Shown: positions 2,419 through 16,190 of the stretch, piece after piece
Layout: the number at the start of each line of letters is the position of its first letter
Numbering within the stretch: position 1 is the stretch's first letter
Source of the DNA: a virus
Lineage: Duplodnaviria > Heunggongvirae > Uroviricota > Caudoviricetes
Direction: 5' to 3' (one strand)
Virus record (IMG/VR): IMGVR_UViG_3300029643_000012
DNA: 21,714 nt
The notes under the pieces: generated by a model
Told to the model about the DNA's origin: nothing
Seen by the model: the letters and a program-made list of their open reading frames with translations, nothing else
Database searches by the model: none
Program-made: the position numbers and the translations under genes

Positions 2419-2604
2419 ATGTCATCAAAGAACAGAACCCGCAGAACAACAACCCGCAACATCCGATTTCCAAACCAGATGATTGAACAAATTAACATCG
2501 CTCTTGATCTGAAAGGTTCAGGAAACTTTTCAGCGTGGGTTATTGAAGCCTGCAGAAGAAGGCTGTCAACAGAGAGTTCGGGTATGAATTACATAATTAA
2601 GTAA
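2419..2604 (+). CDS. Small YlcI/YnfO-like prophage protein (DUF3950-like, possible ribbon-helix-helix fold)
   Basis: 61 aa ORF MSSKNRTRRTTTRNIRFPNQMIEQINIALDLKGSGNFSAWVIEACRRRL...; resembles small proteins found next to lysis genes in E. coli lambdoid prophages. Assigned from memory only. Confidence 0.45.
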   Translation: MSSKNRTRRTTTRNIRFPNQMIEQINIALDLKGSGNFSAWVIEACRRRLSTESSGMNYIIK

Positions 2605-3227
2605 CATGGTGTTCACAGAACACGCAGTTACCGGACACATCAGTTTTCCATTCGCTCCCCGGCAGTACAGGCTTCCCCTCTGACGGGATAGCCTGAAAAA
2701 ATAACACAGAAAATTATTTGTTATAATTAATATAACTTACTCAAAAAAAAGCGACGAGAAAATCAGCATCAACGAACAATAAGCGCCAATACGTGATAAC
2801 AAATGGCAGCCATATTTATCTGCAGTATAAGCAATGGACAGGATAACCACACCAGAAACCGTCAGCATAAAATCCACTTGAACTTCCCCGGACAAAATCG
2901 ACTCATCTAAAGATTTACAGCTCTTTTTATTATCAATATGTTAAAAGTAAAATAAACAGATGTTCAATAACACGAATACAAAAACGTGCTGAAATTCAAT
3001 GAATCCATTTCTGTGTCATCAATTAATAGTGATAAACATCCGGTTTCTTCCACCATCGCACCGGACAGGCGACTATGAGGGGACAACGCCGCGCTCCGTT
3101 AACGCGGTAAACCCCGGTGTGTATCGTTTTTGATTATCCCCGCACACTCGCGCAGAGGAGTCTCCCTGTCGGGCTGCGGTCTCTGTTAATGAGGGAATAC
3201 AGCGACGATACGGCGCATCAACAAAAC

Positions 3228-3695
3228 TTATTTCAGGCACTGAGTACGGATATATTCCTGCGCCCCTTCCAGTTGCTTCTGCATCGTCATCAGCCGCTCT
3301 CTGAGGGTGAAATAATCCCGTGTAACGGTGTCTGCCAGTTGGGGGCCGGTTGCATTATCCACGCGGGCGGTGCCGGTGGCTTCACGCACGGGACCTGGAC
3401 AGGTGGCGTTGATACGCAGGCGCTTACGACCAGCGGCAACGTCAGCGCGAAGAGTTTCATTTTCAGCTTTCGCATCAGCTAACTCCTTCGTGTATTTTGC
3501 ATCGAGCGCAGCAACATCACGCTGACGCATCTGTATGTCAGTAATTACCGCGTTCGCCAGCGTCAGTTCTCTGGCATTTTTGTCGCGCTGGGCTTTGTAG
3601 GTAATGGCGTTATCACGGTAATGATTAACAGCCCATGACAGGCAGACGATGATGCAGATAACCAGAGCGGAGATAATCGCGGTTACTCTGTTCAT
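3228..3695 (-). CDS. Rz: Spanin inner-membrane subunit Rz (i-spanin)
   Basis: Translation [43 protein letters not shown]... closely matches lambda Rz. Start at the internal ATG (3695) gives an ATGA overlap with the endolysin stop. Confidence 0.9.
3290..3475 (-). CDS. Rz1: Spanin outer-membrane lipoprotein Rz1 (o-spanin), embedded in Rz in another frame
   Basis: 61 aa [25 protein letters not shown]...[19 protein letters not shown]; lipobox LVVSAC and proline-rich body matching lambda Rz1; fully inside Rz. Confidence 0.85.
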
Positions 3696-4189
3696 TGCTG
3701 ACCCCACAAACAGATTTCACGCTCAATCTCACGACGAGTCATGAGACCTTTCCATTGCTTACCGCCAGCATATGTCCAGCGACGTAGCTGATCACATGCG
3801 CCTTTGATATCGCCCTGGTTTATTTTGCGAAGAAGCGTCGATGTTCTGAAATTGCCAGCACCCACGTTGTAAACGAATGAGTAAAGAGCGCCGCGCATTG
3901 TTTCCGGTATATCGACTTTGATGTACGGGTTAATTTGTCTGGCGACCGTGGCAAGGTCTTTATTCAGGAGGGCTTTGCATTCTGCTTTGGTATACGTTTT
4001 ACCGAGCATGATGTCTTTTCCTGTATGCCCGTGACATACAGTCCATACACCAACAATATCTTTGTATGGTATGTAGCTGACACCTTCCAGACCATCGTTA
4101 CCACTTGGGCCAGTGATTAACACTGATGCTATAGCAATTGCTCCGCCACCAATAGCAGCAGCAACGGCTTTTCGTAATGATGGAGGCAT
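3692..4189 (-). CDS. R: SAR endolysin, phage 21 R21-type lysozyme (not the lambda R transglycosylase)
   Basis: 165 aa starting [27 protein letters not shown] (Gly/Ala-rich signal-anchor-release domain) followed by a T4-lysozyme-like body; matches phage 21 R as remembered. Confidence 0.9.
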
Positions 4190-4404
4190 TATTCACCTCT
4201 CGCAGCCTTGCGCTTATCTTCTTTAATCTTGAAATAAAGGTTTGTCAGGTACGTCAGCAGGCCAAATACCAGGCTACCCAGCACACCTATTGCCGCCCAC
4301 TGTGAGGGCGTGACTTTATCGAGCAACTGTAAAAACCAGTACCCGGCACTACCTGCTGAGGTACCATAGGCGACACCCGTTGTTAACTTATCCATGGATT
4401 TCAT
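4189..4404 (-). CDS. S: Pinholin S21 with dual-start motif (Met1 antiholin / Met4 holin)
   Basis: 71 aa [29 protein letters not shown]...[35 protein letters not shown]; two TM segments, M-K-S-M dual start; matches phage 21 S. Confidence 0.9.
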
Positions 4405-4542
4405 AACCCCACCTCGCAGACAAAGCGGGTGTAAATTAAGGGGATACTACGTATCGCAATAAAGGCAGAAACGTAACAGATTCGGAGTCAGTGAATAACT
4501 CAGGTATTGGGTTATCAGCTAATATCGAGACTCAAAAAATGG

Positions 4543-4566
4543 AAAAACCCGCTCGACGGCGGGTTT
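4543..4566 (-). terminator. Rho-independent terminator on the minus strand just upstream of S (candidate tR'-type late-leader terminator)
   Basis: Minus-strand reading AACCCGCCGTCGAGCGGGTTT followed by TTCCATTTTTTG: a GC-rich hairpin and a U-run. Confidence 0.6.
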
Positions 4567-4992
4567 AAGCTGTGTGACGAAGTAACCACTCTTAACAGCA
4601 TAACCAATTTTTTACGTACGTAAACTACTAAATGATATTTGTGAGAATGCCACCGAGTGTTCAAAACACCACCACAAATGCATAAGAAAACTTCAACAAA
4701 TAACCAGTTAATAATTTCCAATGTTATTTTTAGTTTGTTTAAATTAAGCTAAAGAATTATAGAGCACTTATAAATAAGTGCCATTAATATAAATTAGCTA
4801 ATAGATTTATTTTTGTTCAGACAAGAGCCATGAATAGGATTAGATAGAAAAGGTTCAGATAAAAATAGAGATCTACTTCACAAATTAAATGAGAAACTAA
4901 AACTTACATCTTGAAATAATCACATTGATTAGATGAATATTTATCGCGCAGTGACATCATTTTTTAATAATAGTTCAAAAAAAGGGCGTACA

Positions 4993-6075
4993 ATGAAAAA
5001 ATTAACAGTGGCAATTTCTGCTGTAGCTGCATCAGTACTGATGGCGATGTCTGCTCAGGCAGCTGAAATTTATAATAAAGACAGTAACAAGCTGGATCTA
5101 TACGGGAAAGTTAATGCCAAGCACTACTTCTCCTCTAATGATGCAGATGATGGTGATACTACTTATGCCCGTCTTGGCTTCAAAGGTGAAACCCAAATCA
5201 ACGATCAACTGACTGGTTTCGGTCAGTGGGAATATGAATTCAAAGGCAACCGTGCTGAATCTCAAGGTTCTTCCAAAGACAAAACCCGTCTTGCATTTGC
5301 AGGCCTGAAATTTGGTGATTACGGCTCAATCGATTACGGCCGTAACTACGGTGTAGCATACGACATCGGTGCGTGGACTGACGTTCTGCCAGAATTCGGT
5401 GGTGATACCTGGACCCAAACAGATGTGTTCATGACTGGTCGCACTACTGGTGTTGCAACTTATCGTAACAACGACTTCTTTGGTCTGGTCGATGGCCTGA
5501 ACTTTGCTGCTCAGTATCAGGGTAAAAATGACCGCACTGACGTAACTGAAGCCAATGGTGATGGTTTCGGTTTCTCCACTACTTATGAGTATGAAGGATT
5601 CGGCGTGGGTGCAACCTATGCTAAATCAGATCGCACTGACGGTCAGGTCGCCTATGGTAAGAGCAAATTCAATGCCTCCGGCAAAAATGCGGAAGTATGG
5701 GCTGCAGGCCTGAAATATGATGCGAACAATATCTATCTGGCTACCACATATTCTGAAACTCAGAATATGACCGTTTTTGGTAATAACCATATTGCAAACA
5801 AAGCACAAAACTTTGAAGCAGTAGCACAATATCAGTTTGACTTCGGTCTGCGTCCATCTGTTGCTTACCTTCAGTCAAAAGGTAAAGACCTTGGTGTTCA
5901 TGGTGACCGAGACTTAGTCAAGTATGTCGATGTCGGTGCTACTTACTACTTTAATAAAAACATGTCCACTTTTGTTGATTACAAAATCAACTTAATTGAC
6001 GATAGTAAGTTTACCAAAACAGCTGGTATTGATACCGACGACATCGTCGCTGTAGGTCTGGTTTATCAGTTCTAA
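4993..6075 (+). CDS. Outer-membrane general porin of the OmpC/OmpF/NmpC (phage Lc-type) family; lysogenic-conversion moron
   Basis: Signal peptide [23 protein letters not shown] then [17 protein letters not shown]..., ending ...VAVGLVYQF (C-terminal Phe typical of porins). Plus strand between Q and the lysis genes, as for nmpC in DLP12 and lc in PA-2. The track ORF begins at 4933 but the ATG at 4993 fits a signal peptide. Confidence 0.9.
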
Positions 6076-6093
6076 TCTGACTTACGAAAAAGA

Positions 6094-6128
6094 TATGTTG
6101 CGGGAGGCTTTGCCTCCGCAACATATAA
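6094..6128 (-). terminator. Hairpin plus U-run on the minus strand downstream of Q (candidate tR' of the Q-dependent late leader)
   Basis: Minus strand reads ATATGTTGCGGAGGC-AAAG-CCTCCCGCAACATAT followed by CTTTTTCG. Confidence 0.45.
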
Positions 6129-6213
6129 GTGGAGCCCTCAAGCCACTTCCTTTAGAAGCACTACCTTGCTTCTTACTATATAAACCTTCTGTTATATATT
6201 ACCCTTTATTTTG

Positions 6214-6237
6214 GGGGCGTTTCCACGCCCCATTTTT
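6214..6237 (+). terminator. Rho-independent terminator downstream of the porin gene
   Basis: GGGGCGT-TTCC-ACGCCCC followed by ATTTTT on the plus strand. Confidence 0.55.
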
Positions 6238-6263
6238 AATAACTTTTAGTAAACAATTGCATA

Positions 6264-6647
6264 TCAATTAGAATTATTAGCAACGATATCCATATCTAAC
6301 CGGATATCTAATGCCATTAACATCCCTTCAATTATGCCCTCAGCCTTCTGTAACCTTTTCCCGATATAACCATCCGAGCAGCAATGCTTACTTGCCAGTG
6401 ACATGAATGTCATACCACATACATAATAATCTACTAATAAATCGTGTAAATCGCTGTTGTTCTTTTTCAGACGGGCCATGCACCCGCAAATGATCATCGC
6501 GTCATCGTCACAACATTGCGGGCGAGATTTTACTTTTGAAGGAATTAATCCCTTAAAACCGGCGGCAATGGACGACCAGGTCACATCTTCATGATTATTA
6601 GCCGCCCACGCACCCCAACGCTCAAGAACCATCTGAATATCACGCAT
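6264..6647 (-). CDS. Q: Late-gene antiterminator Q (QuuD / phage-82-type)
   Basis: Translation [24 protein letters not shown]...[16 protein letters not shown]... with the Cys-rich zinc-binding region of this Q family; position between the nin region and the lysis genes. The track ORF extends to 6662; the internal Met gives a 127 aa product. Confidence 0.85.
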
Positions 6648-6732
6648 CAACTTACTCCACAAAAATCAGACCAGAACGCCAATTACAAGCAAAAATCAAC
6701 AAAACAGTATTAGTTGATTGTTATCTCTGACT

Positions 6733-6869: not shown

Positions 6870-7232
6870 TCATTCATTCCCCATTTCGGTGATGGTCAGT
6901 TCCAGCCTCCCACCTTTGGTAACAGGCATCTTCACAACGCGGTAATCAACGACCTGAGCATCATCCAGCCAGAAACCTGCTTTAGTGAGTGCGTCAAAAG
7001 CGGCTTTTTGCAGATTATCCAGGTCACGGCGACGGCGATCCGGCATGTGGCACTCAATGCGGATTTTCACAGGCATAGCCAGGCCGATATCCAGCATTGC
7101 GTTTTTAATGATTCGGGCGACGTTATCGCGGTATGCCTGCCCCTCTGCGCTGACGTGCGTGCGCCCGCGATTATGGCGGTAATAGCGATTATTGCTCGGA
7201 GGCCAGGGTAATGTGATGCTGTAGGTATTCAC
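6870..7232 (-). CDS. rusA: Holliday-junction resolvase RusA
   Basis: 120 aa [41 protein letters not shown]...; essentially the E. coli RusA sequence as remembered; GTG start overlapping the upstream stop. Confidence 0.95.
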
Positions 7233-15953: not shown

Positions 15954-16025
15954 GCGCGGCGTTACCGCATACCAATTACGCTTCACTCGAGGCGTTTTTC
16001 GTTATGTATAAATAAGGAGCACACC

Positions 16026-16190
16026 ATGCAATATGCCATTGCAGGGTGGCCTGTTGCTGGCTGCCCTTCCGAATCTTTACTTGAACGAATCACCCGTAAA
16101 TTACGTGACGGATGGAAACGCCTTATCGACATACTTAATCAGCCAGGAGTCCCAAAAAATGGATCAAACAATTATGGCTATCCAGACTAA
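16026..16190 (+). CDS. cIII: CIII (FtsH inhibitor that stabilises CII)
   Basis: Hand translation from the ATG at 16026: [54 protein letters not shown], matching lambda CIII. Not in the ORF track (under 60 aa). Confidence 0.85.
   Translation: MQYAIAGWPVAGCPSESLLERITRKLRDGWKRLIDILNQPGVPKNGSNNYGYPD

Follow-up and report, generated by a model that had tools for sequence, protein, structure and literature searches.

This locus raises the question whether a porin gene that stands on the opposite strand between the late antiterminator gene Q and the lysis genes of a tailed phage is an intact moron that changes the outer membrane of the lysogen. The earlier note, made from the letters of this DNA, had taken it for such a moron and had called lysogenic conversion plausible. 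This interpretation is supported by the alignment to Lc and NmpC, by the position of the gene and by its integrity. The reading preferred in this report is that an intact Lc/NmpC moron, reverse-oriented between Q and the lysis cassette, swaps the porin complement of the lysogen (probability about 0.88). Judged by sequence, the gene is an intact Lc/NmpC prophage porin of a kind that is already known and described. In this report, the window is the whole stretch of DNA that was analysed (21,714 nucleotides) and all positions refer to it.

Gene, start codon and protein

The features of the locus, in the order of their positions, are:

3228..3707 (-): Rz-type open reading frame, corresponding to the annotated rzpD of ATCC 11775
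3692..4189 (-): lysozyme gene
4189..4404 (-): gene of a P21-type holin (EssD), the first lysis gene (Pfam Phage_holin_2_1, E = 2e-35)
4545..4566 (-): hairpin resembling a terminator, on the late strand and ahead of the holin gene (terminator scan)
4570..4590: distal CRP-binding site (J02580.1 misc_binding 1067-1087, 21/21 identity)
4700..4992 (+): AT-rich upstream regulatory region (G+C 0.25, conserved blocks extending to E. albertii)
4865..4885: proximal CRP-binding site (J02580.1 misc_binding 1363-1383, 21/21 identity)
4911..4940 (+): candidate porin promoter, TTGAAA, 18-nt spacer, GAATAT (putative, relaxed hexamer scan)
4993..6075 (+), including the stop codon: porin gene, Lc/NmpC allele, 360-aa precursor (Pfam, Lc alignment, PGAP)
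4993..5061 (+): signal peptide, 23 aa, cleavage between AQA and AE (identical to the sig_peptide of J02580.1)
6076..6242 (+), end approximate: structured 3'UTR, IpeX-type element (homology to the nmpC-quuD spacer of DLP12)
6098..6123: bulged 11-bp hairpin just past the stop codon, followed by ATATCTTTTT on the minus strand (sequence reading and folds)
6214..6237 (+): intrinsic terminator of the porin/IpeX transcript, 7-bp stem with 6 G-C pairs, then ATTTTT
6264..6662 (-): Q (QuuD-type) late antiterminator gene, convergent with the porin gene (Pfam Phage_antitermQ, E = 7.7e-54)
6870..7232 (-): RusA gene

The open reading frame spans 4933..6075 (+), and translation from the ATG at 4993 gives 360 residues. 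Sequence comparison supports 4993, not 4933, as the correct start. The former is preferred because PGAP places the start there in E. coli ATCC 11775, where the gene has the same coordinates as in the window, because the lc start and the 23-residue signal peptide of the PA-2 record J02580.1 map to this position, because AAGGG lies 7 bases upstream of this ATG and because 1-nt indels between the two ATG codons put 4933 out of frame in three of six variant loci. The start at 4933, used by some phage RefSeq records and by many database entries of 380-385 residues, was rejected on these grounds.

The porin had been described beforehand as a complete member of the OmpC/OmpF family with a signal peptide and a C-terminal phenylalanine, and this description holds. 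The Pfam profile Porin_1 (PF00267) is covered from 1 to 337 of its 337 positions (E = 1.9e-151), which corresponds to a full-length domain. The protein aligns end to end with the OmpC crystal chains, from residue 24, the first of the mature form, to the C-terminal YQF (E = 6e-137). Relative to homologues, the window porin has no frameshift or stop codon. At least 1000 contigs of the public collection encode this very protein, where it goes by 'porin OmpC' or 'outer membrane porin protein LC'. The gene is thus intact, as it had looked to the earlier note. Among the NCBIfam models, the OmpC subfamily is reached with 521 bits (cutoff 484); the cutoffs of the PhoE equivalog (NF007544, 503.7 bits vs 599) and of the OmpF equivalog (NF007446, 481.5 bits vs 583) are missed. 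PGAP names the product of the window-type gene 'porin OmpC', a label that masks its prophage origin. The G+C content inside the porin gene is 0.43-0.48.

The mature N-terminus, AEIYNK, fits the pattern AE(I/V)YNK and coincides with residue 1 of the OmpC crystal chains. At the C-terminus (VGLVYQF), Tyr358, Gln359 and Phe360 are invariant. The pore-lining basic residues Lys39, Arg60, Arg99 and Arg150, the acidic residues Asp130 and Glu134 of L3 and the motif PEFGGD of this constriction loop are invariant in comparison with OmpC, OmpF and PhoE. An AlphaFold2 model calculated from 27 input sequences has 16 long strands and is of moderate confidence (mean pLDDT 69, pTM 0.68). According to this model and to the independent homology to solved 16-stranded porins (E = 6e-137, see above), the protein is a predicted 16-stranded β-barrel.

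Variability of loops and strands was computed as mean column entropy among 14 Escherichia alleles. The predicted surface loops L1, L2 and L4-L8 reach 0.57-1.12 bits; the strands range from 0.06 to 0.39 bits, L3 has 0.11 bits and the periplasmic turns are mostly at 0. All indels among these alleles are located within surface loops. Variation restricted to the loops in such an alignment is the usual pattern of an exposed, functional porin.

At the DNA level, the signal-peptide region is 98.6-100% conserved across four variants, the mature coding sequences of which are 83-90% identical. The longest invariant run over seven diverged alleles comprises 32 nt (5003-5034, signal-peptide codons 4-14). 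Within this run, CAGTGGC at 5006-5012 is the complement of the first 7 nt of RybB, and nmpC mRNA is a reported RybB target (PMC3333887). The calculated duplex (-13.9 kcal/mol) is equalled by 19% of background tiles and is uninformative alone; the pairing was therefore rejected as evidence.

A protein of 364 residues that is named 'porin OmpF' (P0033) has an OmpF-like N-terminal part of about 100 residues, and its remainder is identical to the window porin. It is either a real recombinant of ompF and the prophage porin gene or an assembly chimera.

Flanking genes and transcription signals

The porin gene (+) is located between Q (-) and the holin gene (-), on the strand opposite to both. The Q product additionally has a distant match to Q21 structures (E = 4e-8). 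The earlier note had described the porin gene as transcribed against the late operon. The opposite orientation is directly visible, whereas antisense late transcription is derived from the lambda paradigm. If the lambda arrangement applies, pR' is to be expected immediately downstream of Q, and the hairpins at 6123-6098 and 4566-4545 would then be Q-suppressed terminators. The hairpin just past the porin stop codon and the adjoining ATATCTTTTT form a possible terminator of the late transcript on the minus strand, judging from the sequence; owing to the bulge, this hairpin was not called by the terminator scan. The best minus-strand promoter match of the region (ATGGCA, 17-nt spacer, TATAAT at 4784-4756) is located beyond the porin gene, towards the holin gene, and has a -35 element with little conservation. 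For DLP12, the regulatory region of the lysis operon is given as -121 to +650 (PMC7918800), which does not settle the position of pR'. A locus with Q only (H55) was considered as a guide to pR' and discarded as uninformative, as it results from an IS1 deletion.

A segment of 77 bp (4544-4620) that includes the minus-strand hairpin and the distal CRP site is common to the phages SfII and SfIV, with 90-95% identity. In Shigella phage SfII, its counterpart (2001-2077 of locus L176) adjoins the holin gene in the same position. The gap between Q and S of SfII contains two unrelated reverse-oriented genes, and the segment borders different reverse-oriented hypothetical genes in SfII and SfIV. Because of these unrelated genes in the SfII gap and because of the shared segment, the Q-S gap seems, from the compared sequences, to be a general, recurrent insertion slot for morons with a conserved boundary element.

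The region upstream of the porin gene is poor in G+C (0.25 at 4700-4999, 0.32 at 4550-4849). The earlier note had called 4700..4990 an AT-rich promoter region. Its low G+C content is confirmed (0.25), but the promoter itself is an assumption, as the scan at default threshold did not detect a plus-strand sigma-70 consensus promoter in 4700-4990. The relaxed hexamer scan gave the candidate at 4911-4940, which is weak in terms of its sequence. The blocks that contain its two hexamers are still recognisable in the E. albertii copy. Upstream blocks kept over this distance include TCTTGAAATA (4909-4918) and ATTGATTAGATGAATA (4925-4940). The TCACA half-site of the proximal CRP site is retained in all variants, including the most divergent copy, from E. 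albertii. The candidate promoter would set the centre of this CRP site (4875) near -71.5, a class I position.

The terminator that had been proposed at 6214..6237 was found by the scan. Its stem has the sequence GGGGCGTTTCCACGCCCC at 6214-6231, followed by ATTTTT, and the run 6225-6242 is invariant across the variants. The 3'UTR, which ends in this terminator, has a fold energy of -53.6 kcal/mol (z = -7.1) and shares about 94% identity with the nmpC-quuD spacer of K-12 DLP12 in a pairwise alignment and 91.6% in a multiple alignment. According to reviews, IpeX is an RNA of 167 nt, known from DLP12 and PA-2, which arises from the phage porin promoter within the porin transcript (PMC12197685, PMC5069750, PMC8065619). 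OmpC and OmpF are lowered by IpeX, apparently without extended complementarity (PMC12197685, PMC5069750, PMC7177473, PMC10690425, PMC8065619). Position, length and identity to the DLP12 spacer allow the tentative assignment of 6076..~6242 as an IpeX-type element, because the distance between stop codon and terminator (162-167 nt) matches the reported length of this RNA.

A search of the whole window against Rfam at gathering threshold and of 4400-6700 at E ≤ 1 gave no family over the porin leader or the 3'UTR. The sub-threshold matches in 4400-6700 (sau-19 and Trp_leader, E ≤ 1) were dismissed as chance. Rfam contains no family for IpeX, and the RefSeq record of MG1655 carries no ipeX annotation. 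RNAduplex calculations of the 3'UTR with the ompC and ompF leaders yielded long, unrealistic duplexes of marginal significance and were set aside.

Role in the lysogen, expression and distribution

Most likely, the gene is a self-contained moron that would be transcribed from its own CRP-assisted promoter in the AT-rich upstream region. The transcript would end at the intrinsic terminator (6214-6237). Its product would be exported via the Sec pathway with cleavage of the signal peptide after AQA, and the mature protein is predicted to form 16-stranded trimers in the outer membrane, with the channel properties of a general-diffusion porin. The IpeX RNA would be supplied by the 3'UTR of this transcript and would lower OmpC and OmpF of the host. 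The net effect on the lysogen would be a swapped porin complement, with altered permeability and altered surface loops facing phages, colicins and antibodies. A benefit by receptor exclusion may be added to this effect.

The same elements can be weighted differently. The IpeX-type RNA of the 3'UTR could be the main selected product, which shuts down OmpC and OmpF, with the porin serving as carrier transcript or as replacement for the lost permeability. Across the four variants, the 3'UTR is indeed at least as conserved as the mature coding sequence (88.6-91.6% vs 82.9-89.9% identity). It is also strongly structured, as its z score of -7.1 indicates, and the reviews cited above derive IpeX from the porin transcript and attribute to it the decrease of OmpC and OmpF. 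However, the pore-lining residues and strands are under purifying constraint while the loops diversify, which corresponds to a functional, exposed porin, and a prophage remnant between yedK and fliE in E. coli B1172 keeps the porin frame intact without neighbouring Q or lysis genes. The roles of RNA and porin are, moreover, not mutually exclusive. That the RNA is the main product is accordingly rated as unlikely, and the porin moron with its own contribution to the outer membrane remains the preferred reading.

The porin gene is probably expressed. Prophage Perceval of strain LF82 encodes a porin that is 100% identical in protein sequence, and the locus is 99.3% identical in DNA. In LF82 transcriptomes, 'Outer membrane porin NmpC' is found among the morons and is 10-fold above the prophage median in the lysogen; the transcription of the Perceval porin was measured in LB (PMC9928086). 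In CFT073, two nmpC genes show higher expression at 37 °C than at 23 °C, in RNA as well as in protein, and ompC behaves in the opposite way (PMC12890032).

These data bear on the view that the gene is intact but quiescent, owing to AT-rich silencing, temperature or catabolite repression, and would be a cargo that brings about no conversion under ordinary conditions. The intact nmpC of E. coli BE is termed a quiescent porin gene in a title cited by PMC3333887, the upstream region has a G+C content of 25% without a strong sigma-70 match, and the expression of nmpC in CFT073 depends strongly on temperature (PMC12890032). Yet the NmpC protein was seen at 37 °C in that strain (PMC12890032), and the identical protein of Perceval is the one transcribed 10-fold above the prophage background in LB (PMC9928086). 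That the frame is intact in most of the carriers listed and that the exact protein is present on at least 1000 contigs speaks for selection on the protein. Quiescence is thus considered quite improbable, and an active moron is favored.

Region 4600-6400 agrees in every base with phage ev207 and with a prophage of E. coli ATCC 11775 (100% identity), and 36 phage records contain at least 80% of the region. A match is present in 3172 of 5426 complete E. coli genomes and extends over at least 80% of the length in 2470. In IMG/VR, 461 stretches encode a relative. The best 80 of these 461 all have the identical protein and are therefore of no use for the assessment of diversity; Q and holin genes are both found within 2 kb of the porin gene in 76 of these 80 loci. 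The porin gene is located between Q and S in the isolated phages ev207, ev017, 2G7b, Perceval, the PhiR series and 434. The alternative, a host porin gene of the chromosome (ompC or ompD) next to prophage DNA, might be suggested by the PGAP name and by the closest non-Escherichia relatives (OmpD-like, 76-83% identity), which have no Q or holin gene within 2.5 kb. It is refuted by these phage genome records and has practically no probability; an identity of only 66% to K-12 OmpC and the presence of both phage neighbours on 76 of the best 80 viral contigs also speak against it.

In isolate 434B of the laboratory phage 434 (L175, 2822-5118), IS5 is inserted in the porin gene after codon 346, a disruption similar to that of nmpC in K-12 DLP12. 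This suggests that 434B obtained its late region from DLP12 when the two recombined in K-12. The chromosomal yedK-fliE locus of some E. coli strains, such as B1172 (L008, 2830-3912), has an intact porin gene with 87% DNA identity next to ybcM-ybcL-emrE. Lysis genes and an annotated Q are absent from this locus, and only the last ~100 nt of Q align. In other strains, such as E. coli VE-F10 (L005, 3001-3325), the locus between yedK and fliE retains the porin upstream region and the first codons only. These remnants correspond to 4664-6362 of the window. The yedK-fliE remnant has the appearance of a DLP12-like prophage that decayed, with the porin outlasting the phage.

A further-reaching idea is that porin and IpeX-type 3'UTR form a receptor-swap module that takes away OmpC/OmpF and supplies a phage porin instead, with loop alleles matched to the tail-fibre specificity of the own phage or of competitors. 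This idea is speculative and rather doubtful. If it is true, the porin alleles (360-aa, 365-aa, 370-aa and other) would co-vary with tail-fibre alleles across lambdoid phages. Tail genes are not present within the window.

The gene is a classical lysogenic-conversion gene present in more than half of the complete E. coli genomes, and its finding here adds little. What this report adds to the first reading is the position of the start codon, the conservation of the CRP sites, the 3'UTR of IpeX type and the confinement of allelic variation to the loops. Prophage porins alter the surface and the permeability of clinical E. coli, which concerns host range in phage therapy, the targets of colicins and antibodies and the entry of antibiotics.

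Comparison with related prophages and porins

The closest records to the window are PhiR63_2 and PhiR57_1. Homology to the records of ev207, ATCC 11775, DLP12 and phage 434 ends at about 3250. In ev207, ATCC 11775, K-12 DLP12 and phage 434, bor/iss follows Rz, whereas a bor/iss lipoprotein gene was not found in the window (region 2554-3249; tblastn with ev207 Bor). Because of the missing bor/iss and the end of homology, the window is, by sequence comparison, a different mosaic from these four. Region 1932-2344 encodes an IS3-family transposase OrfA of 108 residues. An Rfam ALIL frameshift pseudoknot (2213-2312, 75.9 bits) is located 3' of OrfA and is accompanied by a short OrfB fragment only. 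To judge from these matches, 1932-2344, on the downstream side of the lysis genes, is what remains of a truncated IS3-family element. A further Rfam match, to Lambda_thermo, the cIII thermoregulator element (16013-16071 (+), 88.5 bits), agrees with the annotation of a lambda-like cIII gene in the prophage of ATCC 11775.

Among the general porins, K-12 OmpC, OmpF and PhoE are 66%, 62% and 65% identical to the window porin, respectively. With the crystal structures of these porins (2J1N, 2OMF and 1PHO) it shares family, fold, constriction residues and C-terminal phenylalanine. The lysine in the PhoE motif FMTKRASG, Lys125, the determinant of PhoE anion selectivity, is replaced by glycine in the window porin, as in OmpF and OmpD.

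The closest chromosomal clade consists of OmpD of Salmonella enterica and the OmpD-like porins of Citrobacter and Enterobacter (76-83% identity, 81% for Salmonella OmpD). The L3 constriction loop of the OmpD-like porins has the same sequence as in the window porin, and their signal peptide differs. In 78 of 80 genome loci, the OmpD-like genes have no Q or holin gene within 2.5 kb and are thus chromosomal. Because of this lack of phage neighbours, the prophage-borne porin appears, from these sequences, to be an Escherichia lineage of the OmpD clade.

The earlier note had placed PA-2 lc and DLP12 nmpC at the same site as the window porin and had proposed an alignment to both. The J02580.1 alignment and the flanks in MG1655 bear out the position, and identity is 90.7% to Lc and 92% to P0135, a 365-residue E. 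coli porin named NmpC/LC. In K-12 MG1655, nmpC of DLP12 is flanked by quuD and essD and has the opposite orientation to both, as in the window. The DLP12 gene is split by IS5 near its 3' end and is annotated as a pseudogene, whereas the window copy is intact. The DLP12 locus is 88.6% identical in DNA to that of the window. Its upstream region (89-95%) and the 3'UTR/IpeX region (92-94%) are conserved, but the mature coding sequence is only ~83% identical, and the loop set of DLP12 NmpC is of the 365-aa type.

The PA-2 record aligns over its whole length, with the lysis genes on one side and its far end in the 3' end of Q at 6301. The lc gene has the opposite orientation, as in the window, its start and stop coincide exactly with 4993 and 6075 and the two CRP sites annotated in the record are unchanged. 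At the DNA level, identity amounts to 85.5% in the coding sequence and ~82% downstream. Lc has 365 residues, compared to 360 in the window porin, and 331 of 365 aligned columns are identical. The two proteins have the same signal peptide, and within their first 176 residues they differ at only two positions; nearly all differences, including two indels, are found in the predicted loops L4-L8.
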